Shown here piece by piece: positions 8,370-31,848 of a stretch of DNA of 59,507 nucleotides. The stretch lies in the IMG/VR virus record IMGVR_UViG_3300025098_000043, positions 1 to 59,507 of that record; one strand, written 5' to 3'. The notes under the pieces are model-generated. The model saw nothing but the letters and a program-made list of their open reading frames with translations. It had not been told where the DNA came from and ran no database searches. A program made the position numbers and the translations under genes. Position 1 is the stretch's first letter. Every line of letters begins with the position of its first letter. Origin of the DNA: a virus (Duplodnaviria > Caudoviricetes).

Positions 8370-8397
8370 AGTATATTGAATTGACAGGCAATGTCAA
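8370..8397 (-). promoter_or_regulatory. Sigma70-type promoter for the portal operon (near-leaderless)
   Basis: TTGACA-N16-TATACT ending 8 nt before ATG 8361. Confidence 0.7.
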
Positions 8398-8825
8398 TCA
8401 TTTGGGTATGCTACCTCCATGATCTTCTCCATGCGGACCCAATGTCGTCTGCCGTCCTCGGTAGATATCCTAACATATTCTTTGCGTCCTATGTCTTTAG
8501 TCTCCACAAGAAATGGATTATTACGATACTTTCTGGGTGTCTTACGGTATTTCCAGACCGCGCCATACGGAGTCACTTTGTAGTCAGGATAACCCTTTAC
8601 AACCTTCATCTCTTCATCCGGTAACCCATGCACCGAAAACTTTAACTCGTCATGAGCAATTTGGCGGTATTTACCGTCATCACACGTCACAGATGACCAG
8701 TAGCGATGGTTTCGTATCCTCCGAGACATCGGTTTTCCTGACTTCATACTATGTATATAGCCTTCCGGTGATAGCGCGTAATTAGACGCGCCCTCTATCT
8801 GTTTCCATCCTTTCGGTATCTTCAT
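8394..8825 (-). CDS. Tandem NUMOD4-like domain protein (no recognisable HNH domain)
   Basis: Two repeats, WKQIEGASNYALSPEGYIHS and MKVVKGYPDYKVTPYGAVWK, match the NUMOD4 pattern WK.I.G...Y.VS..G.V.S. Confidence 0.6.
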   Translation of the reverse strand: MKIPKGWKQIEGASNYALSPEGYIHSMKSGKPMSRRIRNHRYWSSVTCDDGKYRQIAHDELKFSVHGLPDEEMKVVKGYPDYKVTPYGAVWKYRKTPRKYRNNPFLVETKDIGRKEYVRISTEDGRRHWVRMEKIMEVAYPND

Positions 8826-8860
8826 GTGTATAATACGTTAGTAACTCCAGAGGGCAGAAA

Positions 8861-8934
8861 AAAAACTTTTCTGTCTTACCCTTAGTTCTATAATATATAT
8901 ATTATAGAACTAACGGTCTAGGAAAAAAGTTTTT
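8861..8934. repeat. 74-bp nested palindrome, copy 1
   Basis: AAAAACTTTT-N11-TTAGTTCTATAATATATATATTATAGAACTAA-N11-AAAAGTTTTT; perfect 32-bp core at 8882-8913. Confidence 0.95.
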
Positions 8935-9190
8935 ATTTTGACTTTCTGCTCCGGCTCTCTGCTCGTTTACGTAATATCCTAGACTTGTTTTTCTTGTAAT
9001 ACTCTCTGTTGTAGTCACTTAACTGCTTTTTGTATGAATAAAACTGACTAGGCTCCAGTTCCTCCATAATCTCAAAAGCCCGCTCTCTCCGACTTTTTGT
9101 CCGCTCATAATAGTCGTTTTGGTATCTTAGACGCTCTTTTCGATGTTTCTGGTAATACTCTTTTTTCTTCTTCGGGTCGTATTCCGGCAT
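8933..9190 (-). CDS. Small basic hypothetical protein
   Basis: 85 aa, K/R/Y-rich (EYYQKH, DYYERT, EYYKKN repeats); preceded by a promoter-like sequence. Confidence 0.65.
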   Translation of the reverse strand: MPEYDPKKKKEYYQKHRKERLRYQNDYYERTKSRRERAFEIMEELEPSQFYSYKKQLSDYNREYYKKNKSRILRKRAESRSRKSK

Positions 9191-9196
9191 GCCTAT

Positions 9197-9224
9197 ATCC
9201 TACTAAACGAAGCACCATCGTCAA
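9197..9224 (-). promoter_or_regulatory. Sigma70-type promoter, leaderless transcript
   Basis: TTGACG-N16-TAGGAT ending 6 nt before ATG 9190. Confidence 0.55.
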
Positions 9225-9506
9225 TTTTTTTCTAAATAGACATATGTACACGGCGCGCCGCGAAAAAAAAAGCCGACCCCACCCGTGGCGTATATCTACT
9301 TCGCGCGCGACTATTAATAATGAACCCCGAATCACGAGCCACGAATCAAGAATAGCGTTACGGGAATCAGGATTCACCCTTCGGATTAAAGGCTTAGGCG
9401 AAGGGGGGCTGTCTGGATCAATAACCCTTGTAGGTATAAGGAAAAAGATCGTTGTCTCCCAGAAAAGGTGAAGGGCAACACTGCCCGAAACAATAAAACC
9501 AATACA

Positions 9507-10052
9507 ATGAAAAAGAATACAACCGCAAATGACCTAATCGCTGCCATCGACCTTATGTTTGATAGCATAGACCAAGCATCCCTTACCCTATTCAATCGAT
9601 GGGAAACCCTCACAGCTGAAGGGGAAGACAATGCTGCTAGTTTGGCAATCTTTGAAGCACTAGTGGCCACTAGTAAGCGAAGCACGAATGCTTGCCCTTA
9701 CTTCACTGAGATTGCAAATATGTGCTATCTCGCTGGATGGGAATGGTCAGACTTCAATGCCGATATGCTAGGAGCATACAAGCTCTACCTTGATTGGAAG
9801 GGTGAGAAGATTTCCGCCAAGAAACTCAACAGCCGTGCTGGTGGATGTTGGGGAAGGTTCAAGAAAGATCCTGAGCTTTGGGGCGAGTATGTCGAACCGA
9901 AAGAAAAGAAGGCTGAAGATGAACTGGCTAACATCCTGAAAACCCTCCGCCGCGTAAAAGCGAAGCTGGAAGAGATGGGGCCGGATGATGAGGCATCTGC
10001 TAAGGTCCAGTCATCATTGAACGACATTCAATCCCTGATCACAATTGGATAA
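9507..10052 (+). CDS. Hypothetical early protein (181 aa)
   Basis: ATG 9507 follows an A/C-rich leader (aaacaataaaaccaataca); first gene of the plus-strand early block. Confidence 0.7.
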   Translation: MKKNTTANDLIAAIDLMFDSIDQASLTLFNRWETLTAEGEDNAASLAIFEALVATSKRSTNACPYFTEIANMCYLAGWEWSDFNADMLGAYKLYLDWKGEKISAKKLNSRAGGCWGRFKKDPELWGEYVEPKEKKAEDELANILKTLRRVKAKLEEMGPDDEASAKVQSSLNDIQSLITIG

Positions 10053-10085
10053 ATACTAGTGACCACTAGTAACCCAACTAAAACC

Positions 10086-10277
10086 ATGATAGCAGATACA
10101 AAAGAGAAGATCGAAATGATGAGACTCCTGACCATTAGATCAGGATTGAAGTTAGAGTTGCTCGGAATGAGGCATTCAAGAAATGCCACATTCAAAGCTG
10201 CGAAGCAAATCACTGGAAAGAAAACGCGTCGGGAAGCTCTCGCAGCGTTGGAAGATATCATAAGATCTAAGCAATGA
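10086..10277 (+). CDS. Small basic hypothetical protein (63 aa)
   Basis: ATG 10086 follows the palindrome and an AC-rich leader. Confidence 0.65.
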   Translation: MIADTKEKIEMMRLLTIRSGLKLELLGMRHSRNATFKAAKQITGKKTRREALAALEDIIRSKQ

Positions 10278-10393
10278 AATGTCAGCCCCCGAAAGGGGGC
10301 GCATTCCCTTCTGCTTACCATACTGGTAGGTAGAATGGAGTGAAGATGCTCCGACTACTAGTGTCCACTAGTAAACCAAAACCAAAACTGAAT

Positions 10394-10666
10394 ATGAATA
10401 ATGTAACATCCGTGGACTTTGAGTCCCTTAGCCGTCGCAATGCAGTGTTAACCTACTGGGGGTTCTCTGAACTCTGCACCATGAAGAAACTATCTCCTGA
10501 TTTTAGTGTCCTAGCTGATGGAGTTAACAGCCGATCTGCCGAAACGCATTGGTATAACTTATCGTCGCTCACTAATGTGAGTGTCCGAGAATTAAAAGAG
10601 ATGGCAGATATTATCGTGCCGAAACAAGAACCTCGTTGGGTTAAAGACTACCTCAGCAAGCACTAG
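10394..10666 (+). CDS. Hypothetical protein (90 aa)
   Basis: ATG 10394 follows the palindrome and leader; its TAG stop lies inside the next palindrome. Confidence 0.65.
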   Translation: MNNVTSVDFESLSRRNAVLTYWGFSELCTMKKLSPDFSVLADGVNSRSAETHWYNLSSLTNVSVRELKEMADIIVPKQEPRWVKDYLSKH

Positions 10667-10691
10667 TGTCCACTAGTAAACCAAATAGACT

Positions 10692-10850
10692 ATGAACGAA
10701 ATAGCAAAAACAATTGGCGAGTCCCTTCAAGGAATGAAGGGGCCGGAAGTAATGCTAGTAATCGCTAGCGTATTATCGATGCCTGTCTTCCTTTACATCC
10801 TTGTGATGGAGGCAGTCAATGAAGTAAAGAAACGTAGAAATAGAAAATAG
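10692..10850 (+). CDS. Small membrane protein (52 aa, not in ORF track)
   Basis: Manual translation MNEIAKTIGESLQGMKGPEVMLVIASVLSMPVFLYILVMEAVNEVKKRRNRK: one hydrophobic stretch and a basic tail; fills the gap exactly. Confidence 0.6.
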   Translation: MNEIAKTIGESLQGMKGPEVMLVIASVLSMPVFLYILVMEAVNEVKKRRNRK

Positions 10851-10851
10851 A

Positions 10852-11106
10852 ATGACTAAAGAAAACCTGACGGAGGTCTTCCCTAAGACCTTCAGAATAA
10901 CTAAATGCGAGAGTGGCAGAGCAGATTGCTACTTTGAATACTCGGATAATAACAAAAAGCATTGGTTTACCATATGTTTGCATGGAGCGATTACGCTGCA
11001 TGGGCATTTCACAGAGTTAGGATATGCAGAGTTAGAGCCAAAAGTTAAATTCCCAAGTTGGCATATCGACAGAAGAGAAAGCTTAAAGAATACTAGTGAC
11101 CACTAG
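10852..11106 (+). CDS. Hypothetical protein (84 aa)
   Basis: Starts 1 nt after the upstream stop; its stop lies inside the palindrome at 11092. Confidence 0.6.
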   Translation: MTKENLTEVFPKTFRITKCESGRADCYFEYSDNNKKHWFTICLHGAITLHGHFTELGYAELEPKVKFPSWHIDRRESLKNTSDH

Positions 11107-11129
11107 TAAAACCAAAACCAAATACAACA

Positions 11130-11819
11130 ATGCAAACAAATAACGACAACACAATACCGCCATTCAGCTTCCTCCGTCCAAACCCCGTCAAGGGGTATGG
11201 AGAATTCAATGGCTACGTGTCCCTACCTATAGGCCATCCGTGGTATGGTAAGACATATCCTAAACTTCAAATGGTTGATATCCATTATGGATTAACCTAC
11301 TCCGAAGAGGAGGATGGTAGGTGGGTCATCGGATTCGATACGTATCATGCTAGTGACGATCAAGACTGGAACAGGGAGAAGGTCCGTAAGGAAGCGAATC
11401 GATTACTGGAACAAGCCGAAGATGAAGAGCGTTGGGAGCGGGAGCAGGAGGAGGAACGCCGTATCGAGCTAGAGTGCCACGAGAAACGGGAGGAAGGTAG
11501 TCATTGGTATCAACCTTACACCGAAGCAGTCCCTCTGGACTTATGGGAACTCTTTCGTGCCATAACGTATGAAATATATGGCAAGATAAATCATGAGCTA
11601 CTCATGAAGACGGTATCCCATCACTCCACAAGGTCCAATAAGCTAGACGCCTATCGTATATACCCTGAGAGAGGTGACGGAGTATTGACTGCGGGAAGTA
11701 GCTTCAAGCTGATCGTAGGTATCCGTTACGGAATGGGTGTTGGTGATTACGACTCACCTTTCGTTACTAATGAAACGGCTGCTTTATTTAACCTAGACCC
11801 CCTCAACCGAGACAACTAG
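11130..11819 (+). CDS. Hypothetical phage protein (229 aa)
   Basis: N-terminal NGYV.LP.GHPWYG...VDIHYGLTYS...W.IGFDT.H pattern resembles a recurrent phage domain of unknown function; bounded by palindromes. Confidence 0.7.
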   Translation: MQTNNDNTIPPFSFLRPNPVKGYGEFNGYVSLPIGHPWYGKTYPKLQMVDIHYGLTYSEEEDGRWVIGFDTYHASDDQDWNREKVRKEANRLLEQAEDEERWEREQEEERRIELECHEKREEGSHWYQPYTEAVPLDLWELFRAITYEIYGKINHELLMKTVSHHSTRSNKLDAYRIYPERGDGVLTAGSSFKLIVGIRYGMGVGDYDSPFVTNETAALFNLDPLNRDN

Positions 11820-11852
11820 TGACCACTAGTAAACCAATAAACAATAAACAAT

Positions 11853-12167
11853 ATGAAAGTAAGCAAAGAAATCCAAGACCACGTAGCCAAGCGAGCGGCT
11901 GGACACGAAGCCAAAAGAGCTAAGAATCCAGACTCCCTCTGGTTTGTTCCTGTGAAGTATACAGATCCAGAGGCTCTCGCTGAATGGTGTGACCACTACG
12001 GTCTTGAGACCGTCGAGCAATATGAGCAAGCGTCAGAATGGGAAGCCTATTATGACATCTACAAAGATGTCAACGGAATCCGCCCACGCTGGACCAAGTG
12101 GACAGACCACTCATCGGATGAGTGGGTCGAGATCAACCAGTCACTACTGGATCAGATATGCGACTAG
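11853..12167 (+). CDS. Hypothetical phage protein (104 aa)
   Basis: Contains YYDIYKDVNGIRPRW; bounded by palindromes. Confidence 0.7.
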   Translation: MKVSKEIQDHVAKRAAGHEAKRAKNPDSLWFVPVKYTDPEALAEWCDHYGLETVEQYEQASEWEAYYDIYKDVNGIRPRWTKWTDHSSDEWVEINQSLLDQICD

Positions 12168-12197
12168 TGGACACTAGTAAACCAATAACACTGAACT

Positions 12198-12359
12198 ATG
12201 AAAATAAGAATAAACAAACAACGCAATGCCGACCTCATGCTGTTGGCGGTGGTCATGATCGCCGATAGCTTGGTAACATTATTAACTCTAGCAATCATTA
12301 ACCCAACGTGGAGGGCAGACCTTATGTTTTCCGACTGGTGGGAAAACCGCAACGACTAA
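12198..12359 (+). CDS. Small hydrophobic protein (53 aa, not in ORF track)
   Basis: Manual translation MKIRINKQRNADLMLLAVVMIADSLVTLLTLAIINPTWRADLMFSDWWENRND; follows the palindrome and leader. Confidence 0.55.
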   Translation: MKIRINKQRNADLMLLAVVMIADSLVTLLTLAIINPTWRADLMFSDWWENRND

Positions 12360-12391
12360 CCAATAACCAATAACCAATAACCAATAACCAA
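12357..12391 (+). repeat. (TAACCAA)5 tandem repeat in a translation leader
   Basis: Five exact 7-mers just upstream of ATG 12400. Confidence 0.9.
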
Positions 12392-12399
12392 TAAGAAAA

Positions 12400-13155
12400 A
12401 TGAAACTACTAAACGCTGGAAACAATAAGACAATCAAGGGAGAAGCAATCGGATACCGCACTTACGGTATTCACCTAGCCCCTAGCAAGATATCAGGATA
12501 CAACACCTGCCCTTATGCATCGAAGGGATGTGCCTTAGCCTGCCTCAATACAGCAGGCCGAGGCATCATGAAGACAGTGCAGCAAGCACGCATCGACAAG
12601 ACCAAGATGTTCTTTGAAGATCGTGAAGCCTTCATGGAACAGCTGATCAAGGAGATCAGGTCCAGTATCAAGTCAGCTAAGAGAGCCGGACTCAAGCCAT
12701 GCTTCCGACTCAACCTGACATCGGACATCTCATGGGAGAAGCTCACTGTGGTAGGTGAGAAGACCAGCCTCTTCGACAAGAGGGACCAGACAATCTTCGA
12801 TCTCTTCCCTGATGTGACCTTCTATGACTACACCAAGTCAATGTCTAGGGCTAAGGCATCCCATCGATTGAAGGGTGGCTGCTGGCCTAGCAACTACCAC
12901 CTCACCTACTCACGGTCTGAAGTTACCAATGACGACTGGATCAAGAAGCTGGCCCACATGGGAGTGAACACGGCAGTCGTGTTCCGTGGTCAGCTACCTG
13001 AGAAATACTTAGGACTTGATGTGGTGAGTGGTGACGAGACAGACCTTAGGTTCCTCGACAAGAAGGGTGTGGTCGTGGGCCTTACTGAGAAGGGGCTGGC
13101 CAAGAAGGATGAGACAGGCTTCGTCGTGGAGCCTGCACTTACTAGTGTCCACTAG
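12400..13155 (+). CDS. Gp88-like protein with a Cys motif (possible Fe-S / radical-SAM-like fold)
   Basis: NTCPYASKGCALACL, RLNLTSDI, FYDYTK, NYHLTYS and GDETDLRFLD motifs characteristic of this phage family. Confidence 0.65.
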   Translation: MKLLNAGNNKTIKGEAIGYRTYGIHLAPSKISGYNTCPYASKGCALACLNTAGRGIMKTVQQARIDKTKMFFEDREAFMEQLIKEIRSSIKSAKRAGLKPCFRLNLTSDISWEKLTVVGEKTSLFDKRDQTIFDLFPDVTFYDYTKSMSRAKASHRLKGGCWPSNYHLTYSRSEVTNDDWIKKLAHMGVNTAVVFRGQLPEKYLGLDVVSGDETDLRFLDKKGVVVGLTEKGLAKKDETGFVVEPALTSVH

Positions 13156-13262
13156 TAGAAACCCATACCCACACAGCATCTATGTCTCGACAGGCATAGA
13201 CGTTGTAGGGTGTGCGTTGTTTCACGTTGAAACTGACGACCCAAACCAAGCAATAAGAAATA

Positions 13263-13643
13263 ATGAAAGCAATAAAGAAGGCAATCGCCAACACGAAGAA
13301 GACAGTAGCAACTAAGATCCGTAACGTAGCGATCTGGTTGTTTAAAGATGAACTCAAGAACATCGTCTTATCAGATGGTGTGCTTGATTACGAAAACCTA
13401 GCCCTGTTCATAGATGAGAAATACATCGCCGAGCATATCAGGGATGCCGATGTGGCGAAGCACGTCGAAGTAGATCCTGATGATGTAGCTTACGCTATGG
13501 ACGTTGATGATGTGGCATCACACATAGACATGGATAGCATAGCCCACGATATGGAATACAACGTCAAGCAGGAGTTGGGTGAGTCTCTTGAAGAGATGCT
13601 GGAAGACAAACTCAAGAATGCCACGTTCAAGATGTCGATATAA
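13263..13643 (+). CDS. Acidic hypothetical protein (126 aa)
   Basis: Imperfect ~9-aa D..D(V/I)A.H(I/V) repeats; its stop overlaps copy 2 of the 74-bp element. Confidence 0.7.
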   Translation: MKAIKKAIANTKKTVATKIRNVAIWLFKDELKNIVLSDGVLDYENLALFIDEKYIAEHIRDADVAKHVEVDPDDVAYAMDVDDVASHIDMDSIAHDMEYNVKQELGESLEEMLEDKLKNATFKMSI

Positions 13644-13715
13644 AAACTTTTTCTCCAGACCGTTAGTTCTATAATATATATATTATAGAACTAAGGGTAA
13701 GAGAGAATAGTTTTT
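13642..13715. repeat. 74-bp nested palindrome, copy 2 (inverted relative to copies 1 and 3)
   Basis: Identical 32-bp core at 13663-13694; spacers TCTCCAGACCG and GGGTAAGAGAG approximate the reverse complements of the copy-1 spacers. Confidence 0.95.
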
Positions 13716-13797
13716 TACCCCGCACCCCGAATCATTTACCTTGAATCTGGTATCCGAATCGGCTGTAAGCTAGTATCTACGGGGAAAGAAAATAAAT

Positions 13798-13825
13798 TTG
13801 ACACAAGATATCATCAACCTATTAT
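13798..13825 (+). promoter_or_regulatory. Sigma70-type promoter
   Basis: TTGACA-N16-TATTAT with an A-rich UP-like region, upstream of ATG 13897. Confidence 0.65.
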
Positions 13826-13896
13826 CAATGAATCCAGCTGAGAGAATGGTCTCAGCACCAACTAAAACCAAAACCAAATAGAAAGAACCAAATACA

Positions 13897-14949
13897 ATGG
13901 AAACAAATACAACAGTAGAAGCCATCAATGAACTCGACACCGTCCTCGTTCCGCAAGGAAGTGAATACAAAATGTATCACGGACTTGAGGTAGAGTCGGA
14001 GGGTGAGTTCATAACTCCTCGTGATGCCAAGCGTCACGGTGTGTTCCACCCGATAGAGAAGGCCCGTGTCCACGCTACGTTGGACGGTCTGACAATCCCG
14101 TTGCCTAAGCAGCGCGCTCTCATAGCGAGGACGCCGGACGATAGGCGCATCCCGTTGCACATGGCAACGGATAAGTATTCAGTCATCCTCAACGAGGTGA
14201 TTGCTAAGGCAGTCAGCAAAGCGTTGAGGAAGACTGACTGTGACTCCACGTTGTCGTCGATGGGAACCCTCAACAACCTGAAGATGTTCTTCATGAGTTA
14301 CAAGATGGGTGAGTATGATGTGAATGGTGACAAGCATAACACCTACCTGAACGTGACGAGTGGTCACAACGGGGAAGCTCTTCGGGTCTTCCTGTCTGGC
14401 CTCCGTCTTGTGTGTAAGAACTCAATCATGCAGGCTCTCTCCAATGAGAAGGGCTTCATTAATCTGAAGGTCACCCATCGTGGGGACGTGGATGTGAAGT
14501 GTGCTGACCTCTCGAAGAGTATCGCTGGTCTGATTGAAGGACAGCGTAAGCATATCGAAGCGATGGAGATCCTCGCTGCACAGAAGGTGGCCAAGCAGGA
14601 CGTTGTTGCCATCGTGGCAGGTTACTTCTTGAAGGATGCCATGAAGACTGAGAAGTTCTCAGCCCGCACCATGAACACCGTATCCGGTATCACGGATCTC
14701 GCATTCGATGGTAGGGGGAACCGTGGTGAGACATGGTATGATGTCTTGAATGGGGCCACTGAGTATTGGACTAGTGGTGAAGGTGTTGGGGTCCGCACGT
14801 CGAATGCTAGCAAGGCATACTCAAGTGAGTATGGCACTGCTGCCAAGCACAAGACACGGTTCGCTGACTACCTGTTGTCTGCTGATGAGTCCTCTATTGA
14901 GGCTGGCCGTCGTGTCCTTGTTGAATCCCTTAATGCTAAGTTGGTATGA
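13897..14949 (+). CDS. DUF932/DUF945-family phage/plasmid protein
   Basis: Y.V..N, SGHNG, RLVCKNS, THRG and T.YD.LNG.TEY motifs typical of this family. Confidence 0.75.
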   Translation: METNTTVEAINELDTVLVPQGSEYKMYHGLEVESEGEFITPRDAKRHGVFHPIEKARVHATLDGLTIPLPKQRALIARTPDDRRIPLHMATDKYSVILNEVIAKAVSKALRKTDCDSTLSSMGTLNNLKMFFMSYKMGEYDVNGDKHNTYLNVTSGHNGEALRVFLSGLRLVCKNSIMQALSNEKGFINLKVTHRGDVDVKCADLSKSIAGLIEGQRKHIEAMEILAAQKVAKQDVVAIVAGYFLKDAMKTEKFSARTMNTVSGITDLAFDGRGNRGETWYDVLNGATEYWTSGEGVGVRTSNASKAYSSEYGTAAKHKTRFADYLLSADESSIEAGRRVLVESLNAKLV

Positions 14950-15266
14950 TTGTAAACGGTCAAATTAAATGCACCCAGTATCGTGTATCTCAGATCAAGA
15001 AGCTGTCCGAGAAGGACAAGCGTCTTGTGTTGAAGGCATTCAACTCGTTGATCGCCGCGAACAAAGAGCGTGTGTCTTACACTGAGTTCCACCGCAAGCT
15101 CAAGCCTGCTGTGAAGATAGCCTCGACTGTCGTGCAGAGGGGGACACCACAAGCGAACATCTTCTCATGGATTGGTAAGCTTGTAGAGGATGAGCATGAT
15201 GAAGTGAAGGACTGGTTCTTCGTGTGTCATGGACCACCAGAGAACCCGTTCAACCTCAGTCACTAG
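14946..15266 (+). CDS. Hypothetical protein (106 aa)
   Basis: ATGA overlap with the upstream gene. Confidence 0.6.
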   Translation: MIVNGQIKCTQYRVSQIKKLSEKDKRLVLKAFNSLIAANKERVSYTEFHRKLKPAVKIASTVVQRGTPQANIFSWIGKLVEDEHDEVKDWFFVCHGPPENPFNLSH

Positions 15267-15268
15267 CC

Positions 15269-15308
15269 CCGCCATGGGCTATGGTCTTCGGGCCATAGCC
15301 TTAGGCGG
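15269..15308 (+). other. Stable cUUCGg hairpin (terminator or processing/stability element)
   Basis: GGCTATGGTC-TTCG-GGCCATAGCC with outer CCGCC/GGCGG pairing; intergenic; no clear U-tract. Confidence 0.65.
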
Positions 15309-15344
15309 TGTTGGAATGAACTAACACCTAGTAGAAATAAACCA

Positions 15345-15626
15345 ATGAAAGAAACTGATATGACAAATGATAATGCAGGCGTGCCTGTAATCCACATGAA
15401 CGGCTCGTCTAAGAATAGCCTCGTGAAAGAGTGGGTCGCCTTTAACAGTGCGTTAGAGGAAGCCTGTAACAAGTTCCCATTTGAGAGCTTCCACCCTCGT
15501 AACCATTACGTGAAGGAAGGAGACGGTGAGGGAGAAGCAGAGGCATACAAGGCTGAGATGTGTGAGCATCTCCACGCTTTGAAGCGGTGTGTCCAAGAAA
15601 ACGTGGCGGGAATTTGCAAACAATAG
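15345..15626 (+). CDS. Hypothetical protein (93 aa)
   Basis: ATG follows an aaataaacca leader. Confidence 0.65.
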   Translation: MKETDMTNDNAGVPVIHMNGSSKNSLVKEWVAFNSALEEACNKFPFESFHPRNHYVKEGDGEGEAEAYKAEMCEHLHALKRCVQENVAGICKQ

Positions 15627-15630
15627 ACCG

Positions 15631-15933
15631 ATGAAAGCAGACGAGAAAAGAATACTGGCCCTCGCAGAGGGGACACAATCGGATGACGTAAGGGAGAGTG
15701 ACATCCCCCTCGTTCGGGCAGGACTACTGAGCCTGACTAGTTGTTACGTTGAAGACGGCGGACTAAAACGTAACTGGATGTGGGTGGACCCCCACCCTGA
15801 TGCGCTCCGCTATATGAACAAGCACAAGCGACTGACTCCTGCCCACCGTAGGACGTTACGTGCTACCGTTAAAGGTAAGATCCGCCAGTGTGATGTGGAC
15901 TACGCCCGTCAATGTATTGAACCAAAGTATTAG
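15631..15933 (+). CDS. Hypothetical protein (100 aa)
   Basis: ATG 15631 lies 4 nt after the upstream stop. Confidence 0.55.
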   Translation: MKADEKRILALAEGTQSDDVRESDIPLVRAGLLSLTSCYVEDGGLKRNWMWVDPHPDALRYMNKHKRLTPAHRRTLRATVKGKIRQCDVDYARQCIEPKY

Positions 15934-15934
15934 T

Positions 15935-16324
15935 ATGGAACAGGAGACCAGTATGAAACTATGCTCCGGCTGTAAGCAGGAGCTGCTTGAGAGCGACTTC
16001 AACATGGACGCTTGCAAGCCAGACGGATTGCAGACGCAGTGCCGAGACTGTAAGCGTGCCGCCCAACGTAGAGACTACAAAAAAAAGAAAGGCATCTACG
16101 CTGACAGGATGCGAGAAACAAGGAAGACTAAACCTGAGCAGAAGAAAGCGCATGAAGCTGTCCGCCGTGCTATAAGGAAGGGAGTTCTTGTGAGACCTAA
16201 AGCTTGCACCAAGTGTGGGGGATCACACATGCGAATCGAAGCACACCACCACAAAGGTTATGCCGAAGAGAACCGCTTGGACGTTATCTTTTTATGCACC
16301 TCCTGCCACCGAGCAAGCGAGTAA
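15935..16324 (+). CDS. Zinc-binding HNH endonuclease-like protein
   Basis: CSGC...CRDC, then CTKC...IEAHHHKGY...LCTSCH. Confidence 0.75.
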   Translation: MEQETSMKLCSGCKQELLESDFNMDACKPDGLQTQCRDCKRAAQRRDYKKKKGIYADRMRETRKTKPEQKKAHEAVRRAIRKGVLVRPKACTKCGGSHMRIEAHHHKGYAEENRLDVIFLCTSCHRASE

Positions 16325-16385
16325 ACATTTAACCAAAGAACAAATAAACCAATGACAATCAAACAATACGTAGACTCACAGTAAC

Positions 16386-16529
16386 ATGGACTACCTACAA
16401 ATAATCGGTATCATATTGTTGATGCCCTTAACCGTTGTGATCCTCTACTTGAATGCGATCAAGACTGAAGACCGCCGCTTCCGTAAGATGAAAGAACGTG
16501 CAGATAAGAAAGCTAAACTAAACAGATGA
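16386..16529 (+). CDS. Small membrane protein (47 aa, not in ORF track)
   Basis: MDYLQIIGIILLMPLTVVILYLNAIKTEDRRFRKMKERADKKAKLNR; ATGA overlap with the next gene. Confidence 0.6.
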   Translation: MDYLQIIGIILLMPLTVVILYLNAIKTEDRRFRKMKERADKKAKLNR

Positions 16530-16942
16530 GCGAGAAGAAATATTCCAAAAAGTATCTTGATGCCCTCTTCGAGACTAAGATCAAGAGGCTCAAAGGTCAG
16601 CCGACTTACGTTCGTGATCACGTTAGGGCCATCCTAAGTGAGACAGCGAAAGAGTATAACCTGACGCACCCCATTGAGTTGTTTACTAACTCTAGGGACA
16701 TGATGTATGTTGCGCCTCGGCGGATCTCAGTCGCCTTAGTGAGAGATAAGCTGGGCTTTTCTTATACTACTCTGAGTAATCTAATCGGATACAAGAACCA
16801 CACGGCTGTGATACACGCCGTTAAAATAGTGCAAGAGGAAATACAGAACAGCCCCGCCTTGTGCAGGACTGTTCGTAATATCCTTGACCGTGTCGATAAG
16901 ATACAGGCTGAGGCTGAAGAGGATCAGTCGTCTAGTCTGTGA
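16526..16942 (+). CDS. Stand-alone DnaA C-terminal (domain IV) HTH protein
   Basis: SR....V.PR.I...L.R...G.SY..L...IG.KNHTAVIHA matches the DnaA RDHTTV.HA signature; no AAA+ domain. Confidence 0.75.
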   Translation: MSEKKYSKKYLDALFETKIKRLKGQPTYVRDHVRAILSETAKEYNLTHPIELFTNSRDMMYVAPRRISVALVRDKLGFSYTTLSNLIGYKNHTAVIHAVKIVQEEIQNSPALCRTVRNILDRVDKIQAEAEEDQSSSL

Positions 16943-19900
16943 TACCTAGCCCTCTTGTTCTTCTCTTCTAGCATAGGAGAGATACGATCAGCTAGCCCCC
17001 TCTGTTGGAGTCCTTCAAGGAACCCGACATTGGGGGTTAGTCTATCTGATATGCCGACTCTAAGGAGTCTTGCTTTATCCTTCCCGATTCCCGCACCTTT
17101 CATCACGTTGAACTGTTCCCTGTCCTCGATGCCTAGACCTTTGAATCCTTGCATCACGGTATACATTTCCTTGTTCAATGTGATTAGATCATCTGCTTCA
17201 TCGTTGTAGATGTCGCGGATGTCATCTTCACTGATGGGCTGGTCGCTATACATGCGATACTTTTTAGACTTCACTTCATTCACCCGATCCTTGTGGTCTC
17301 GGATGAACCTACGGAACTGAGCTTCCTCATCCACATCGTGGATTCTGAATGGTAAAGTGCCATCGAAGAACTCACCAACAGGAGAGTCGCTAACCTTATC
17401 CCAGTCTGTCCCCATAGCTTTGTATGCGTCCCATGCATCACTAATCAGGCGGGGATTGTAAGCTGTGTCCACGACGTAGCCTAACCTCTTAGCGAACGCG
17501 ACAGAGAACCCGTCCACCTTGTCGATGGAGATCGGCCTGTCTGTCTTGGCATCTCGGTTATCCATTGCATCTTGAACAGCACCTGCAAGGATCTGTTCAT
17601 CGAGGTATTGGTCGAAGAAGGCTCCCTTCAGGAATGCCCCTACGGCACCGTCGATATTGCCTCTTGTTAGTTCCTGAACGCCGCGTGCAACTGGATCAGC
17701 CATGATGCTGAATGGGTTGACGTAAGTCAGGTCGATTGATTTTAGTTCGCCAAACCACCTAAAGAAGAAGAACGAATGCCCCCTCAAGTAGGATGGCATC
17801 GACTTCCTAAGTGCTTCGTCTTCATCGTTACCAATCCCCAGCACAAGCAGGGCGAGCGCAGAAGGTACTCCTAATGATAACCCACCTACCATTGATGTCA
17901 TGGCGATACGTCTCCGCTTACCTCTAGCTTTTATCAATGGGTTATCGCTAGCCATTTCTTCCTTCGCCAGCTCGTATGTATTGAACACGATACGCGGAAT
18001 TTCAGTTTTGAATCGGATGAACGGAGCAAAGAGCATACCGTAGCTAGACTTCGATAGCTTGCTAATGATCGGTGGGGCTTGGCTCAGTGACTGGGCAGTC
18101 CGCTTAACCTTGTCAGCTGCCATGCGCTTGAGTTGCTCGTCTGTTGCATCTTTAAATTTCTTCGACCCTTTACCAAATATTCTCGTGTCGGGATACTTCT
18201 CTCTAGCCTCCATCAGGACACCCAACTCGTGCTTGTAGTATTGGATTTTGTATACCCCATCTACGTTAGAGGACAATCTCATGAGTGCTTCCTCTAGTGA
18301 TTTAAAACCCTTACCAGTCTTGGCGATAGCCCCCTTGGCTCCTGATGCTTTATCGTCAGGAACCTTGTCGAGGATGTTGTTGAGCTTATCGAGGAAGGTT
18401 TCATTCTTACCGTCGAGTAACTCCTTGATCATACCAGCACGAAGCTCGTCACCAAATACACCTAAAGCTGTCATCTCAGTAAGCTCCGCGTCTATCTGGT
18501 CGGGATTCATTACACCAATAATAGACTTCCAAGAATCCGCCGCAGTCCTGCCCATTGTTGAGAGCGACACACCTTGAGCAGGTCCGAAGAACAATACGTT
18601 TCCTAAGATGTTACGGACGTAGAAACCAACGGAGCCGAGTGTCTTGAACAGCATCGACTTACCCGTTAGGTTCTGCATCACTTTAGCCATACCCTCTACG
18701 GTCTTACCAGCAGATGAGGAATCAATTCCTATCGGCGAAGGTGTGAGCATATCCCGCAAGTCTTTAACTGTATCAGCTGCGGCATACATACCAGCCAGTG
18801 GATCACCTTTGACTGCTGTCTTAGGATCAAGTAAGAGAACATAGTCTCCAAATTTAGCTGGGTCTGCGTCTCTCTTTTCTTTACTGACGATTGAATTACT
18901 TTCATCACCCCACTTAACAATGTTACTTCTGAACTTCTGTTGTGCCGCTAGTGTGGACACGGTAGCAAAGGTTCTAAGCAGGAGGTTGGTGGCTGGCTCT
19001 CCTTTAGTAGACTCTTCTAAACCATACTCACCCATAAGATTTCTAAGTGCAATCGGTAGATCCTTCCGGCGTGAAAGGTTCTTCATGATCTTCTTATAAG
19101 ACTTAGTGAGGGGAGTCCCACTTCCTTGGAGTCCAGTGTCATACTGTTGCACGAACACCCTCATGGCTTCAGTAGCTTCATCCTTTGAGAGTCCCATCTG
19201 GTTCGTGAAGTATTCGATAGCGAACTCACGAGCGGTCTGGAAGTCAGGATCTTCCAGAACCTTCTGAGCGTATGTCGGATCGTTGAAGATCTTATACTGT
19301 CTCGTAAGATAGATACCACCAGTCCTGTCAATTCTAGCCCTAAGCTCTTTCGATAGACCTGAACCGTCTTCAGTCATGATCTTCTGAATAGGTCGGATAA
19401 GTTCCTCACGCATCAGAGTGATCTTAGCAGCGAGGTCTGGAGATATTTTTCTGATATCATCCAGTGCTTTGTCAACGGCCTGTTGATGTTCTGCGATGGC
19501 TTTTGTCTCAGCCTTCACTTGCAGCCGATCTCTACGGTCTCTGGATTCTTGTTTCTGTTCTTCCTTTTGAGCGTCGGTGAGCGAGTCATCATTCTTTAAC
19601 TGCCTTACTGTAAGGCGATGTTCTTCCTCAATCTCTCTGTAGGATTTTTCTTTAACGAGGCTGACGGGAGAATAACCTTGAGCTAGATTAATCTTATCAC
19701 TCAACTCCTGAGTCATCTCACCGAAATCTCTTTCGATGATCTTGTTGAATTCCGTGTGGAATGTTTTCAAGACACGAGTTGATGCTCTCTCAAACTCAGC
19801 GCGCTGCTCCATGATCCTTCTGATAGGTAGGTCAACGTCACCTTTGAAGTTCCTAGCGAACCAAGTCTTTGGAGATTTGTAAGTCTTGAACTCCACCATC

Positions 19901-22900
19901 GAAAGCTCAAGCAGCTTTGGAATATTAGAGAAGTCTACATCACTTGCGGAGGATGCCCCGACTTTAGCTTGAAGAGCTACTCCTTCTGGCTGTCCTGAAC
20001 CGATGTCTCGCTTCAATATCTCATTGAACTTATTTAAAGATTCTTCAGGGTCGTCAGTGTTGAACTCCGTCGAAGGATCGTAATGAACATAACCGTTCTG
20101 GATGAGGATGACCTCATCGTGAATACGGATAAGCATCTCGTCTAAAACACCTGAGCCTTTCTCAGCTCTCCTGCGGTTTGCCAATCGAGCGAACATCGAC
20201 CTGAAGTATCGTGCAATTATTCTAAGGAGAGAGGGGTCAGACGACCAGAACTCAGCATCCTCTTCAGTTGTTGTTCCAGACAGCACACGCTCCGAGTTCA
20301 TACGGAGATACTCCTCAGCGAGTTGCCTCTTGATGAGGGCAACTTCCTCCACGTTATCGCTTTCGAGTTTCGCCTTCGCTTCTGCGATTGCCTCATCGGT
20401 TCTGAAGTATGTCTCAGCAATAGAGGCGTAGTCACTATCTGAGATGGACTCCTCTAGCTTAGTAATCTCTTCGACGGTAAGAGCGTTATAGGAAGCAGAG
20501 TGGATCGTCTCATGCAGTAGAAGTTTCTCTGCGTAGACCTTAGCTCCAATCATATCCATTCCTCTAGTCGCGACCTCAAAAGCTTCAAAGTCAAACTCAA
20601 CTATCTGTATCCCGTCCGAATTAAAATTGCCTTGGTTCAACCGAGCAATACCTCCTTCATCCATTAGACTAGATTCCTGTAGAGACAGACCTCTTGGAGT
20701 CCTACTCCGCAAGTGGGCTTCGACTTCCTCGATCTTACGCCTATTCTCAGACTCGAAAGTGACTGGCTCATCAGAGGCGGTATCTTCTACAGTATCATCA
20801 ACCGCTTCCTCAGATGTCATGCGGCTCTCCCGCTGCTCCTGTTGTTCGATGATCTTCTCTTGAACTTTCGTAATAACTCTTCCTGTATCTTCAGCAACTC
20901 GTGCGGCTTCTTGTGTAAGAGGAGGGCGTTGTGCTAAGGTAGAAGACTTGGTTAGGTCGATGACATCCTGTAGAGCCTTACCATATTCAACAGCTTCAGT
21001 CTTTGATACCTTACGCTTTCGGAACATGGACAAGATAGAATCAATGATCCTCTTGAAGAAACCACGTTGATCAGCAGGAGCTTCCAGTAACTTGATGCTA
21101 GCTTGAAGCTTAGGTGACAATAAGAACTTAGCTAAGAACTCGTCGAAATCTACGAAGGCGTCTTCAAGCATAGGATCTTTAATACCACTGGCGCGATACT
21201 GTTTCTCTGCCAGCTTGTAGATCCGGTTGAGTCTTTCGACAGCGGCGTTCTGTTGATCAGATCTCTGATCGGTATTTGATTTAGTTACGTCAGACAAGAA
21301 TGCGTGGACATATTCCTCAAGCAGGACGTTCTCAAGTCCGAGCTTGTTGCCTGTATCGATATTGATTGCTACCCGATGAGTCCCATCATTACGATAAGCA
21401 TACTGTCCGGCGTAGTCCTCTGGGCTATCTACAATGTAGAAGTCTACAGTGCTGATGAAAGACTCATCTTCTAAAAGAAGGTCAGCTACTAACTTATGTG
21501 ATGGGTTATCTGACTCAGCGGATATAGTCTTGAGTGCAGCGATAACTGTCTCAGGACTATTATGCTCAAGCCCAAGTCTTTCGATCTCCGCTAGGTTATC
21601 TGCTCGCATCAACTGGCGCTCCATCGGAGTCGCCGCTTGTGACGCTGAGTTCTGTGAAGCGTGGTTGTTAGCCCGACCAACAATCATCATAGCTTCATCA
21701 CTTAGCTCCGCCCTTTCTAGAGGATCGGTAGTGCTTTCAAGATCCTCAACGATTTCAATGAGCGACTCTCTATCTTCAGGACTAAGTTTATCTAAGGTAG
21801 TTCCATAGATCTTTCTCTCATTGTCCTTCCTCTCAGCTTCATCCACCCCTTTAGCAACCTCCGTCTCAATTCTAGACGAGACATTTTTCTTTTCGGCTTT
21901 ACTGGCATCAGGGTCGATAAGCTTGGACCGGAGATTACGAACTACTGTCTGGTCTTCGGGACTTAACTTGTAGAACTTCTTGTTACCTTTAATCAGGTCA
22001 ATAGCTTCTTTAGTTAGGCCATCTACCGGAACAGTCTTTCCTTCTAAGAAAGCTTTTCGGACTGCTTTTGCAGGAGCCGACTTAGCTAAAAGCTCCTGTG
22101 CTTTTTCAGGAAGGGCAAGAGCAAGGCGGACAAATTCGTCTTCCTTCGCTATGTCTCTTTTCGCGACTATGATCTTACCTCTATCTGTGAGTTTCTGTTT
22201 CTCTTCTCTAGACGTTACGAAATCGAAAAGAGATACATCACTAGGGACACCACTTATGCGAGCGTCTTCTCTTCTACGGAAGTTGGCGAAAGCAATAGTA
22301 TTGCTAGTGACATCGCCCTTAGTAATCAGCTTACCTGTATTAAGAACTTTAGCGTCAGGGTAATAAACTGTTTCTAAGAGATCTTTGAGCTTTTCCGCAG
22401 AGGGTAGTAAGCTCTGTTCAATCTGCCTTTTGAATTCTAGTGCGTCGAGAGCCATCGGGCTGTCATAACCAGCCTGTCTAATCTTATGAGCAATCGAATC
22501 AATAAGAAACTCTGTAGGCAAATTCGGGACTTCGTCTATAGCTTCTTGGCTACTGTTGTTGCCAATGTCTATGTAGAGCTGTTCTAATTGCTGCCGGACT
22601 TCTGGATTAACTTCAACCTCAGTGACCGCTGCCTCCACTGTGTCTTTGAAAACTTCTGACATAGCATCTGAATCGAAAGACAGAAGTTCAGGTTCTTCCG
22701 CGCCAAGTATGGCGTCTAATCCATCAAGTGATCCAGTCGATGGATCGTAGCCTGCTTCCGTTATCTCTTCCAAAGAAACAGCTTGACTCGCGACCCTAGC
22801 ACTATCTCGGCTGATGCTTTGGCCAATGTATCTATCAATCGATTGGCGGATGAGCGTCATGAAGTCAGGCATCGAGCCTGTCTTTATAAATGCTTGGTTG

Positions 22901-29960: not shown

Positions 29961-29987
29961 CGGAGGGTCTGCTGCGGCACCCGCCTA

Positions 29988-30061
29988 AAAAACTTTTCTG
30001 TCTTACCCTTAGTTCTATAATATATATATTATAGAACTAACGGTCTAAGGAAAAAGTTTTT
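29988..30061. repeat. 74-bp nested palindrome, copy 3
   Basis: Identical 32-bp core at 30009-30040; outer arms extend to CGCCTAAAAAACTTTT / AAAAGTTTTTTAGGCG; overlaps the TerL stop. Confidence 0.95.
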
Positions 30062-31848
30062 TAGGCGAGTAGCGACGAATCGGGATTATTAAGCGCACCA
30101 CTCAAACTCTTAATCGAAACCTGTTTCCTGAACCCTTTACCATCTTCGTCTTTCGGTGGATCAACAGCCACGAGTCCCATACGCTGGCGAGCGCAATCGA
30201 GCGCAAGAAATGCGGCATCAGCCAAGTCAGGACTACGACCGAACCTAGCTTTGAACTCTAATTTTGATTCGATCTTCACTTTAAGGGAACCAGTTTTCAC
30301 CATATCGTAGTTTCTGGCGCACATCTCTTTGGCTAAATCCGACGAGATTCCGTAGATCTGGCGCGTCCGCATTAGCTCCTTACCGACGAACCAGAGTTCT
30401 GACACTCTATTAGTGTAGAGTTCTTCACCTGTAAGTTGACTGTTCATACTGACTCGTTTGTCGGATGCTTTACCGCCAAAAGTAACGCGCATGAATGAAC
30501 TCTCCCACTCGCCAGCTAATACATCACAGAAAGGCGCACCTGCACCAGTGGAGTCAATAGCTAGATTACTAGCAGATATATCTCTCCGTTTGCAGTGGTC
30601 GATAATTTGATGAACAATCTGGTAGGTGCGCGGAACCGCTTTATTTGAGGCATCATCATTGAGGTGTATGGCCTCTCCCAATTTGCATACATACTGACCG
30701 TTTCGAGCGTAACCAACCTCAGCGGTGTATAAGATCGTACGGTCTCCGCCTGTCGTGAACGCGGGGTCACATCCTGCGATAATCGTCGGTTTTTCTACCC
30801 AATCTACGTCACCTAAAGCGCCACTTTTAGCCATCTCAGCCTCAGAGTAGATTCCGGTTGTCTCGTCGCTGTCGAAGAAAACGGCCCTGACCATTCGCAT
30901 GTAGCCTCTTGACTCTGGCCCTAACAATAGTCGGTCCTCTTCCAGCTTGGCAGCGGTCGGGAGCCAAGGATATTTTTCTTCTCCTAATAATATATTTGGG
31001 CTTCGCTCACCATCTAGTCTTATATACTTACCACCCCACTTAGTTTTCCACTCATCAGCAGTCTGCGTATCGATGGCTTCCCAGCCCTTCTTCGGCTCTG
31101 ACCACACGCCAAAAGCGTCGAATCGGCTATTCGGGTTAGACATTCCAATCATCTGGAAGAACGGGTTCTTAGAAAGGTTAGTCAGACCAGCCTGCAATAT
31201 ACTTTCAGAAAGTTCTGAAAGTTCATCACCAATCATAATTACCCGCTTCTGCTTAATTCCTATGAATCTGCCAACTGCCTCGCGTGTTTTGGATTTCTCC
31301 GCTGCAATCAAAGAAAGACCAGCCCGTTCGATAAGCGTGCCGTTCTCATCGACATACGCTGCGTTTCCGATTGAATCCCGAATCTTGATTGGCGCACCAT
31401 CGATCACGGACAACAAAGACATAACGGAACCCCATATCCTTTTTCGCGCTTCCCGTAACGTGGTAGAGGTCATCAGGACTAGTGTGTCACGAGGCTGGCA
31501 GAGCCATTGGACAATACCCCACGCGGCCATCGTGTGTGATTTACCACTACTGGCGGAGCCACCGATAGCCAGATATTTATCTTTTAGAGCAGCTCGAATC
31601 ATCTTTTCGGCCCAAGGATGGCGAACCATCATCGGCTCTGGTAGTTCTTCGCGATTCCAAAGTTCGTCGCATATCCGCCAGAAGTAGAACTCTTTAGCTT
31701 TATTATTAGGGTGATGAGCGAACCCATATAATAGAGCGGTCAGCGTGCTAGTAGGTTGAATCATTAGACCACCTACGTCCATCTGCTTAGATTGTGGGTC
31801 GATGCGCGGCTCTAGAACGCGCTTGCGTTTGTCTGCTTCTGACGGCAT
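30061..31848 (-). CDS. terL: Terminase large subunit (likely start MPSEADK at 31848)
   Basis: Walker A GGSASSGKS, Walker B MIGDE, coupling motif MSNP, and RNase H-like GCDPA, IDSTG and SPDLADA. Confidence 0.9.
   Translation of the reverse strand: MPSEADKRKRVLEPRIDPQSKQMDVGGLMIQPTSTLTALLYGFAHHPNNKAKEFYFWRICDELWNREELPEPMMVRHPWAEKMIRAALKDKYLAIGGSASSGKSHTMAAWGIVQWLCQPRDTLVLMTSTTLREARKRIWGSVMSLLSVIDGAPIKIRDSIGNAAYVDENGTLIERAGLSLIAAEKSKTREAVGRFIGIKQKRVIMIGDELSELSESILQAGLTNLSKNPFFQMIGMSNPNSRFDAFGVWSEPKKGWEAIDTQTADEWKTKWGGKYIRLDGERSPNILLGEEKYPWLPTAAKLEEDRLLLGPESRGYMRMVRAVFFDSDETTGIYSEAEMAKSGALGDVDWVEKPTIIAGCDPAFTTGGDRTILYTAEVGYARNGQYVCKLGEAIHLNDDASNKAVPRTYQIVHQIIDHCKRRDISASNLAIDSTGAGAPFCDVLAGEWESSFMRVTFGGKASDKRVSMNSQLTGEELYTNRVSELWFVGKELMRTRQIYGISSDLAKEMCARNYDMVKTGSLKVKIESKLEFKARFGRSPDLADAAFLALDCARQRMGLVAVDPPKDEDGKGFRKQVSIKSLSGALNNPDSSLLA

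Follow-up and report, generated by a model that had tools for sequence, protein, structure and literature searches.

A 16-bp palindrome at the evolutionary junctions between gene cassettes of uncultured marine tailed phages

The PeSLs of T4-type phages are elements of about 100 bp, loosely conserved in sequence, that carry a sigma-70 promoter, a terminator stem-loop and a Shine-Dalgarno sequence; they flank ORFans in hyperplastic regions, where recombination between PeSLs explains the insertions and deletions that distinguish RB49 and phi1 and yields mini-circles (PMC2839356; PMC4122927). The stoperators of mycobacteriophage L5 and of cluster A phages are asymmetric 13-mers bound by the monomeric immunity repressor of a temperate phage, with more than 20 spread genome-wide (PMC9283540), and the early promoters of the N4 vRNAP are hairpins of 5–7 bp, the start site being set by an A-run after the hairpin (PMC4496689). 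Here we describe a 16-bp palindrome, ACTAGTG-NN-CACTAGT, which recurs eight times in an array of small genes of a tailed phage. The stretch analysed, hereafter the window, is the whole of virus record IMGVR_UViG_3300025098_000043 (59,507 bases, rated 100% by CheckV). Our tentative interpretation, to which we would give slightly less than an even chance, is that the element is a lineage-specific intergenic control site, most likely the DNA-binding site of a symmetric protein, and at the same time a crossover point for short-homology recombination. The junction role is argued from comparison of related arrays, and the binding role, as the most likely one, from the symmetry, invariance and position of the element.

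Like PeSLs, the repeated element of this array is an intergenic sequence that spans the interval from an upstream stop codon to the next start, lies among small ORFans in a hyperplastic region, and coincides with the breakpoints of indels and replacements between close relatives; shuffling of modules by recombination between repeats is proposed in both cases. It differs from them in its core, an invariant 16-bp perfect palindrome followed by a G-free leader, which is far shorter, and it has no sigma-70-like promoter, T tract or Shine-Dalgarno sequence; its stem is weak and an A-run comes after it. In evolutionary terms the array does the job of PeSLs, but without their promoter and terminator. 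A literature search for the arrangement found no matching description. The original prediction, which had drawn attention to these palindromes, took the arrangement to be unlike any described system, and this was too strong a statement given the PeSL cassettes (PMC2839356; PMC4122927).

The eight copies lie on the plus strand at 9659..9674, 10055..10070, 10357..10372, 10662..10677, 11092..11107, 11815..11830, 12163..12178 and 13141..13156 (copies 1 to 8), with the centres GC, AC, TC, TC, AC, AC, GA and TC in that order. All fall within 9659–13156, compared with a mean of 0.00 and a maximum of 0 exact matches in 100 dinucleotide shuffles. Allowing up to two mismatches added no copy in the window (0.24 expected), and the reversed pattern, used as a control, had no match there. 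The palindrome is confined to one co-directional block that runs from gene A (9507–10052) to position 13643 (9.5–13.7 kb). Seven copies stand at gene boundaries, in short gaps between co-directional open reading frames (ORFs) given as 25–45 nt, with 106 nt from copy 8 to the next ATG; copy 1 is internal to gene A. For five of the eight copies, the TAG stop codon of the upstream ORF is inside the element (ORF ends 10666, 11106, 11819, 12167 and 13155). The first TAG occupies element positions 3–5 and the second positions 13–15, followed by an in-frame TAA, and two of the three frames are closed; in one cassette family of the relatives, the third frame passes through the element and stops on a TAG in the leader. 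Six copies are followed by a G-free leader of the AAACC or AACCC type, with the ATG 14–22 nt on. The original prediction had claimed as much: eight copies and none elsewhere, seven of them at gene boundaries and five enclosing the upstream stop, an AAACCAA-type leader and ATG after most, and one copy within the coding region 9507–10052. All of this agrees with our scans and ORF ends.

In its fuller form the element reads (T)ACTAGTG-NN-CACTAGT-A, with a G-free AAACCAA-type leader after it, and the extended 18-bp duplex form is TACTAGTG-NN-CACTAGTA. The two ACTAGT half-sites are spaced 10 bp, and position −1, in copies that leave it free to vary, tends to be T (18 of 33), extending the dyad opposite an invariant A at +17. 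Leader length ranges from 5 to 37 nt, and throughout the array leaders are typically CA-rich and G-free, with a recurrent CCAAATAGA right before the ATG. The hexamer ACTAGT occurs 30 times in the window, 16 times within the array and 14 times outside it, the latter at about chance level, and CTAG occurs 232 times against 229–244 expected. What stands out is therefore the 16-mer and not the SpeI-type hexamer, and on the same counts we rejected restriction-site avoidance or any connection with SpeI.

Exact-pattern scans returned 22 stretches from viral contigs, among which only G001 carries dispersed multiple copies (7), at least 117 stretches from metagenome contigs, and 118 from genome contigs, where an array was present only in L359 (7 copies on a 7.3-kb contig). 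Among the metagenome matches listed, the contigs related to the window are L122 (the G001 record), L145 (7), L185 (6), L126 (3), L184 (2), L215 (2) and L224 (1). L359 is filed in a Porticoccaceae genome bin, a weak lead to the host and an odd one given the phage's lack of Shine-Dalgarno sequences. We compared seven arrays, those of the window, G001, L145, L185, L126, L184 and L359, leaving out L215 as a part-duplicate of L185. Together they hold 40 exact copies with identical arms, whose centres are AC in 16, TC in 14, GC in 7 and GA in 3. Re-scanning the seven at up to three mismatches revealed one variant only, a single C-to-A substitution in L145 and L185 at the orthologous junction with gene A, and the arms are unchanged although gene A falls to 50–56% amino acid (aa) identity in L126 and L184. 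Gene A, P0003 (encoded at 16526–16942) and the 350-aa protein served as queries for more distant arrays, and among viral contigs only G001 was found. Four near-complete relatives with about 90% TerL identity (G003–G006) have no copy at up to three mismatches, and between their homologues of 9290 and 16386 they have unrelated gene content and no comparable palindrome family. The element is therefore a feature of one sublineage, in which it moves together with this module. The same 16-mer also appears as short tandem runs (2–3 copies, 10–42 bp apart) in L012, L121, L150, L170, L192, L197 and others; contigs with such runs, and the other contigs with single 16-mer matches, have no blastn similarity to the window.

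Maps of the seven arrays, drawn from ORF clustering, differ in cassette content with palindromes at the borders. With a slash for each intergenic palindrome and all ORFs on the plus strand, the window reads: gene A / 63 aa (10086–10277) plus GC hairpin / 90 aa (10394–10666) / 52 aa (10692–10850), 84 aa (10852–11106) / 229 aa (11130–11819) / 104 aa (11853–12167) / 53 aa (12198–12359), the GP88-family ORF of 251 aa (12400–13155) / 126 aa (13263–13643). G001 reads A / 52 aa / 120 aa, 73 aa / 233 aa, 127 aa / 104 aa / GP88 / 126 aa, and L145 reads A, 98 aa / 93 aa, 72 aa / 67 aa / 226 aa / 104 aa / GP88 / 126 aa. L185 is like L145, plus a 69-aa ORF and a GC-hairpin module after A. The remaining maps are A / 90 aa / 52 aa (L126), A / 66 aa (L184), and A / 63 aa plus hairpin / 52 aa / a long version of the 229-aa type / 104 aa / GP88 / 126 aa (L359). 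Genes paired without an intervening palindrome overlap or abut, and move as a unit.

In seven comparisons between arrays, one flank of a palindrome was 77–98% identical over 60 nt and the other less than 45%, and homology overran the left edge of the palindrome by 0–1 nt or its right edge by 7 nt (the shared AAACCAA). Four more pairs are leader-length differences before the same gene and are not counted among the seven. We also collected the ends of inter-array blastn blocks with a minimum length of 100 bp. Such ends do not represent independent events; of 139 unique internal ones, 29 lay within 5 nt of a palindrome (6.2 expected), 10 inside one (3.8 expected) and 67 within 30 nt (18.3 expected), and the other 72 lay in diverged coding sequence or at other borders. 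Identity between arrays also changes in steps: L126 is 85% identical to the window to the left of the site and 98.5% to its right, and L359 is 89, 97, 82, 97 and 96% identical over successive inter-palindrome blocks. The original prediction had proposed asking whether gene presence and absence breaks at the palindrome in relatives, and it does, with homology ending 0–1 nt from the edge in several independent comparisons.

The individual junctions can be read in turn. Copy 2 begins 3 nt past the stop codon of gene A (TAA, 10050–10052) and is followed by the leader AACCCAACTAAAACC and an ATG at 10086; its left flank is homologous to L126 and L184, its right flank is not, and the same leader heads different ORFs in the window and in L185. 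Copy 3, ahead of a leader and an ATG at 10394, forms the end of a 110-bp non-coding module that holds the GC-rich hairpin GCCCCC-GAAA-GGGGGC (10285..10300, plus strand; no T tract, and not scored by the terminator scan). Its left flank is 98% identical to L185, where the right is unrelated, and its right flank is 98% identical to L126, where the left is unrelated; the interval 10269–10379 is 98% identical in L185 and L215 despite different flanking genes. At copy 4, the upstream ORF ends on the first TAG (10664–10666) and a leader and ATG (10692) follow; the right flank is 95% identical to G001 and the left flank is unrelated. The ORF upstream of copy 5 ends on the second TAG (11104–11106), with a leader and an ATG at 11130 downstream, and the G001 blastn block begins at 11091. 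At copy 6 a block against G001 stops at 11815, the first base of the palindrome, and identity to L359 steps from 82% to 97%; here the upstream ORF ends on the first TAG and the leader runs to an ATG at 11853. The first TAG likewise closes the ORF before copy 7, which has its leader and an ATG at 12198, and whose centre, GA, is the reverse complement of the TC at the orthologous L359 site. Copy 8, at which the GP88-family ORF ends on the second TAG, is separated by a spacer of about 100 nt from the ATG at 13263, and its flanks are conserved in G001, L145 and L359. On these sequence comparisons, the palindrome is a mark of evolutionary cassette junctions.

Spacer 13157–13262 is itself strongly folding (145-nt fold, −43.5 kcal/mol, z −3.6), with a long hairpin based on CTATG...CATAG; G001, L145 and L359 conserve this spacer, for which there is no Rfam match.

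Some breakpoints lie instead in the CA-rich leader or at the ATG. Compared with L359 and G001, the window has its 53-aa ORF as an insertion among the CCAATAA leader repeats of the GP88 gene (five tandem heptamers at 12360..12394, plus strand; 3–5 copies in relatives), which represents a second kind of crossover, and unrelated ORFs have their leader and first codons in common, for example ATGCAAACAAATAA. The phage encodes its own exonuclease and Holliday-junction-resolvase PHROG families. We scanned 42 of its proteins, which matched 16 Pfam families and 38 PHROG families, 25 of them listed; among these 16 and 25 families there was no recombinase, integrase or transposase, and the absence of a tyrosine or serine recombinase, noted in the original prediction, holds at this depth. 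Because breakpoints fall also in leader repeats and at the ATG, because no recombinase was found, and because the phage has these exonuclease and resolvase families, short-homology recombination fits better than a dedicated site-specific system, and we favour exchange by short-homology recombination at a repeated regulatory sequence over the work of a dedicated recombinase. Since the element is repeated in direct order, it would also serve as a crossover point for such recombination, a second role that the comparative data bear out more directly than the binding role: 16–25 bp in the same orientation would act as crossover points between co-infecting relatives or within one genome, and cassettes of one or two ORFs would thereby be deleted, inserted or exchanged. 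Each cassette retains a leader, and the two TAGs of the palindrome give a stop in two of the three frames.

It is very improbable, in our estimate, that the palindromes are dedicated integron-like or serine-recombinase-like sites at which a dimeric enzyme cuts the 2-bp centre. The crossover sites of serine recombinases have inverted arms around a 2-bp centre; breakpoints in the array are exact at the element, and one orthologous site has its centre in opposite orientations (GA in the window, TC in L359). However, serine-recombinase sites have half-sites of about 12 bp, a 2-bp crossover that matches between partners, and a recombinase gene, whereas the arms here are just 7–8 bp, differing centres (AC and TC) have evidently been joined, and no resolvase or invertase family was present among the Pfam and listed PHROG families. 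The further breakpoints in leader repeats and at the ATG, and the conservation of one copy inside a coding region, also speak against such sites.

The comparison with integrons is similar. The attC sites of integrons are 57–141 bp long, keep a common structure rather than a common sequence, and depend on the tyrosine recombinase IntI, encoded next to them. The array resembles an integron in its small co-directional cassettes, whose own promoters are not recognised, in its palindromic separators, and in content that differs among relatives; it differs in that its site is 16 bp long, perfect-armed and invariant in 40 copies, and in that no IntI was found among the Pfam and listed PHROG families, the array ORFs themselves also having no recombinase domain. 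Thus, of the recombination-site idea in the original prediction, the part that places the elements at evolutionary junctions stands, and integron logic survives as analogy only, given the missing recombinase, the invariant 16-bp site and the breakpoints elsewhere. We consider it distinctly improbable, though slightly less so than a dedicated site of known type, that a lytic phage here has a true gene-cassette system, integron-like in mechanism, with the palindrome and its centre as the site of recognition and crossover for an as-yet unrecognisable phage or host enzyme; equally improbably, accessory cassettes would in such a system be excised and inserted as small circles, possibly by way of an extruded hairpin, without any known recombinase family.

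Could the palindrome be a repeat without function, kept uniform by gene conversion and hitch-hiking with the leader, with breakpoints at gene boundaries reflecting selection against broken genes? The copies do travel with the leader and even with first codons, ATGCAAACAAATAA being common to unrelated ORFs, and four relatives at about 90% TerL identity manage without the motif. Against this, the arms are invariant in 40 copies, even in lineages whose neighbouring gene has only 50% aa identity, and hitch-hiking leaves the perfect dyad symmetry unexplained. Copy 1 is also informative. With its GC centre it is a perfect 16-bp palindrome that encodes A-L-V-A-T-S within gene A, and, although it has no leader, it is kept in all seven arrays and conserved at synonymous sites. 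The peptide LVATSK is invariant across six gene A homologues, down to 50% aa identity, and the codons of copy 1 are identical in five of five cases relative to L126 and in five of five relative to L184, whereas other conserved residues keep their codon in only 52% and 47% of cases; this retention has a probability of roughly p = 0.03, with L126 and L184 not being independent lineages. We therefore regard the functionless repeat, too, as a poor prospect, on a par with the unrecognised cassette enzyme.

The features that bear on a binding role are the dyad symmetry, the invariant arms, the variable 2-bp centre, the 10-bp spacing of the ACTAGT half-sites, the T at −1 that extends the dyad, the restriction to one operon and, as RNA, a weak stem whose loop varies. 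An invariant stem with a variable loop and no compensatory change is what would be expected for a symmetric protein that reads the sequence on duplex DNA. As we picture it, a dimeric DNA-binding protein on the duplex palindrome would gate polycistronic read-through at each boundary, in a manner resembling the L5 stoperators but on a symmetric site. Stoperators likewise comprise many copies of one short sequence in short intra-operon gaps, with a proposed stop of elongation at the boundaries; in contrast to stoperators, which are asymmetric and act according to orientation, the array site is symmetric and confined to one operon. As a functional model of a protein site that recurs in operon gaps, stoperators come closest. 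We found no repressor, integrase or sign of lysogeny in the Pfam and listed PHROG families surveyed. Phage phiC31 offers a further parallel: its CIRs are highly conserved palindromic repressor operators that lie in many intergenic gaps of the early region. Half-sites centred on CTAG are read by TrpR-like helix-turn-helix proteins, and in the E. coli trp operator the ACTAGT half-sites have 8-bp spacing, against 10 bp here.

Several observations weigh against this interpretation. A binding protein for the palindrome was not found. Two candidates were examined: P0003, which matches Pfam Bac_DnaA_C at 5.6e-10 (DnaA domain IV, a helix-turn-helix) and so bears the DnaA-IV label that the original prediction had given to 16526, and P0002 (8933–9190), a small, very basic protein of 85 aa transcribed divergently relative to the array. 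Homologues of both are present in the four relatives that have no motif, and co-occurrence of the two with the motif was therefore rejected; DnaA domain IV belongs to the TrpR-like fold group, and no evidence ties P0003, or any other protein, to the motif. Gene A (9507..10052, plus strand; 181 aa), which is constant and comes first in all arrays, was rejected as a DNA binder as well: it belongs to no known family, its AlphaFold2 model is all-helical (pLDDT 76.4, pTM 0.64), and Foldseek found no match to the PDB at E ≤ 0.001. The centre is strand-biased, being AC, TC or GC in 37 of 40 copies, GA in 3 and GT in none, which a purely symmetric DNA site does not predict; such a bias leaves room for an RNA or single-strand function, or for mere spread by direct duplication with the leader. 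No sigma-70-like promoter was recognised on the plus strand upstream of gene A, and the polycistronic transcript is therefore only a premise. All copies were retrieved by exact pattern, so the invariance of the arms is partly ascertainment. Finally, the block-end counts are not counts of independent events, and ends at gene boundaries would also arise if selection simply purged gene-breaking recombinants.

The GP88-family protein, the only one of the ten array ORFs with a Pfam family (PF17338, 2.8e-48), has invariant cysteines at positions 37, 44 and 48. Its model is alpha/beta barrel-like (pLDDT 77, pTM 0.77) with only weak, non-significant matches of the TIM-barrel type, it has no PDB profile match, and from the model it looks like an enzyme rather than a DNA binder. 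As the enzyme acting on the palindrome it was rejected, given these weak matches and a repeated palindrome family with 7-bp arms at just 5 of 80 GP88 loci. Four marine phage contigs that bear GP88 (L112, L075, L105 and L083) have repeated palindromes of their own with invariant arms and variable centres: GTAA(G/C)TCGTTGA-NNN-TCAACGA(G/C)TTAC occurs in 11 copies in L112 and 6 in L075, and AAATCGC-NNN-GCGATTT in 6 copies in L105. Repeat units of about 80 bp are almost the sole nucleotide similarity between L112 and L075 apart from GP88. Phage-specific families of intergenic palindromes may be common.

The strand bias of the centre finds a natural place if the palindrome acts as an mRNA hairpin, with a stem of 6–7 bp and a GNNC loop, between the stop codon and a leader without a Shine-Dalgarno sequence. 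It could then be a processing or stability signal, of the kind that RNase III sites provide between the early genes of T7, or it could insulate the unstructured leader or couple termination to reinitiation. Every copy is on the sense strand of one operon, with a stop codon before it and a leader after it; the centre is NC in 37 of 40 copies and never GT; and the predicted hairpin dominates local structure in all eight folds. Moreover, inspection of upstream sequences showed Shine-Dalgarno sequences to be absent ahead of most genes of the window, so leader structure may matter. However, the stem is weak (local minimum free energy −4.9 to −8.8 kcal/mol, z +0.2 to −3.0), and 7 bp is too short for RNase III. 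There is zero covariation, and an invariant stem with a variable loop is the reverse of most RNA-hairpin recognition. The copy inside gene A, conserved at synonymous sites, separates no genes. Taken together, we judge an RNA hairpin unlikely, though the likeliest of the alternatives.

Alternatively, the element could be a compact promoter, either an N4-like hairpin or a T7-like duplex, for an unrecognised RNA polymerase that the phage delivers or redirects, each cassette then being its own transcription unit with its start in the AAACC leader. The element stands directly upstream of each leader and is followed by an invariant A-run, and CACTAGTA resembles CACTATA, the core sequence of T7-group promoters. 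Copy 3 has a GC-rich hairpin module ahead of it. A sigma-70-type scan of 8700–17000 found 12 promoter-like sites against 11.9 expected, of which a single weak one (9/12, 11066–11094) touches a palindrome; there is none at the other seven palindromes or upstream of gene A. The terminator scan gave 8 candidate sites, all of them away from the palindromes. Bacteroidota-type TAnnTTTG promoters were tried and rejected (34 on the plus and 28 on the minus strand, about 22 expected; none at palindromes or upstream of gene A). The likeness to N4 lies in short inverted repeats upstream of early genes with an A-run and in an ORF of about 3,500 aa in the genome. N4 differs in having three promoters, a conserved, purine-centred 3-nt loop and a recognisable T7-like vRNAP, whereas the array has eight copies, a variable centre (2 nt, or a 4-nt GNNC loop) and no detectable polymerase. 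The variable loop is at odds with the conserved 3-nt loop that N4 needs; leader length varies from 5 to 37 nt; one copy is intragenic and one is 106 nt from the next ATG; and no RNA polymerase or sigma factor was detected in the proteins scanned. We consider a promoter improbable.

The ORF in question (16924–27477, minus strand; 3,517 aa) is in the virion module and has the size of the N4 vRNAP. It lies beside packaging and structural genes and has about 10 APEVTEA repeats, an Ala/Lys-rich tract and HExxH-like motifs; versions in relatives are 3,573–4,282 aa long and 33–78% identical. As an N4-like vRNAP it was rejected at the level of sequence searches, which gave no PHROG or Pfam family, and no PDB match was obtained with the single sequence or a 4-sequence profile, nor were T/DxxGR or DxDxD motifs present. 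The sole lead is to large polyvalent protein domains (LPD38/39, MuF_C), with weak Atlas scores of 0.76–0.84. Neither did the 42 other proteins yield an RNA polymerase family among the families surveyed. The 752-aa protein was dropped as a hidden polymerase because its best lead is an SU10-type portal (Atlas 0.97).

The window is a tailed phage with TerL, PolA, a DUF5906 primase-helicase, a helicase, an exonuclease, a Holliday-junction resolvase, an amidase endolysin and long tail-fibre proteins. No cultured kin were found among 50,697 phage records, either for the array (blastn with 9000–14000) or by TerL (tblastn), and PolA is only about 27% identical to cultured phages; IMG/VR contains 189 TerL relatives. 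No Rfam family matched in the window. A minus-strand, tail-fibre-like ORF crosses both ends of the record (1–1147 and 56152–59505; 382 aa and 1,117 aa), and the record is therefore circularly permuted, or was circularly assembled, and cut inside this gene. A HNH-endonuclease PHROG is present somewhere among the 42 scanned proteins. The label NUMOD4 that the original prediction attached to 8394 was not reproduced, as no Pfam match was obtained for 8394–8825 at E ≤ 1.

Between the divergent 85-aa gene and gene A is a 316-bp gap (9191–9506), GC-rich with several inverted repeats and about 85–89% conserved in relatives, in which there were no sigma-70-like plus-strand promoters and no Rfam matches. 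On the minus strand, TTGACG-16-TAGGAT lies 6 nt ahead of the ATG of the 85-aa gene, which suggests a leaderless mRNA, and a comparable TTGACG...TTTAAT is located 9 nt ahead of the ATG at 32484. A repeat of about 75 bp, unrelated to the 16-mer, has three copies at borders of transcription blocks (8860–8935, 13642–13717 and 29985–30063) and holds a 7-bp A/T hairpin and an AT-rich palindrome with 14-bp arms (TTAGTTCTATAATA..TATTATAGAACTAA). The first two copies are mutually inverted and bracket the palindrome array and the divergent 85-aa gene. G001 has three copies as well, and the repeat is found also in L145, L126, L359 and L224. Its role may be that of a terminator acting in both directions or of a promoter element.

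The ORFan regions of phages turn over fast, and sequence signals that guide this turnover are documented for few lineages, chiefly as the PeSLs of T4-type phages. The array described here is an unusually clean natural case, with a 16-bp invariant junction site and seven variants from marine metagenomes in which events can be read at base resolution. In the engineering of such phages, the element might also provide a defined "landing pad". If the palindrome were the promoter or recombination site of an unrecognised enzyme, that enzyme would be new. If it is a protein operator, it would mean operon-wide shut-off or gating in a widespread group of uncultured marine phages.

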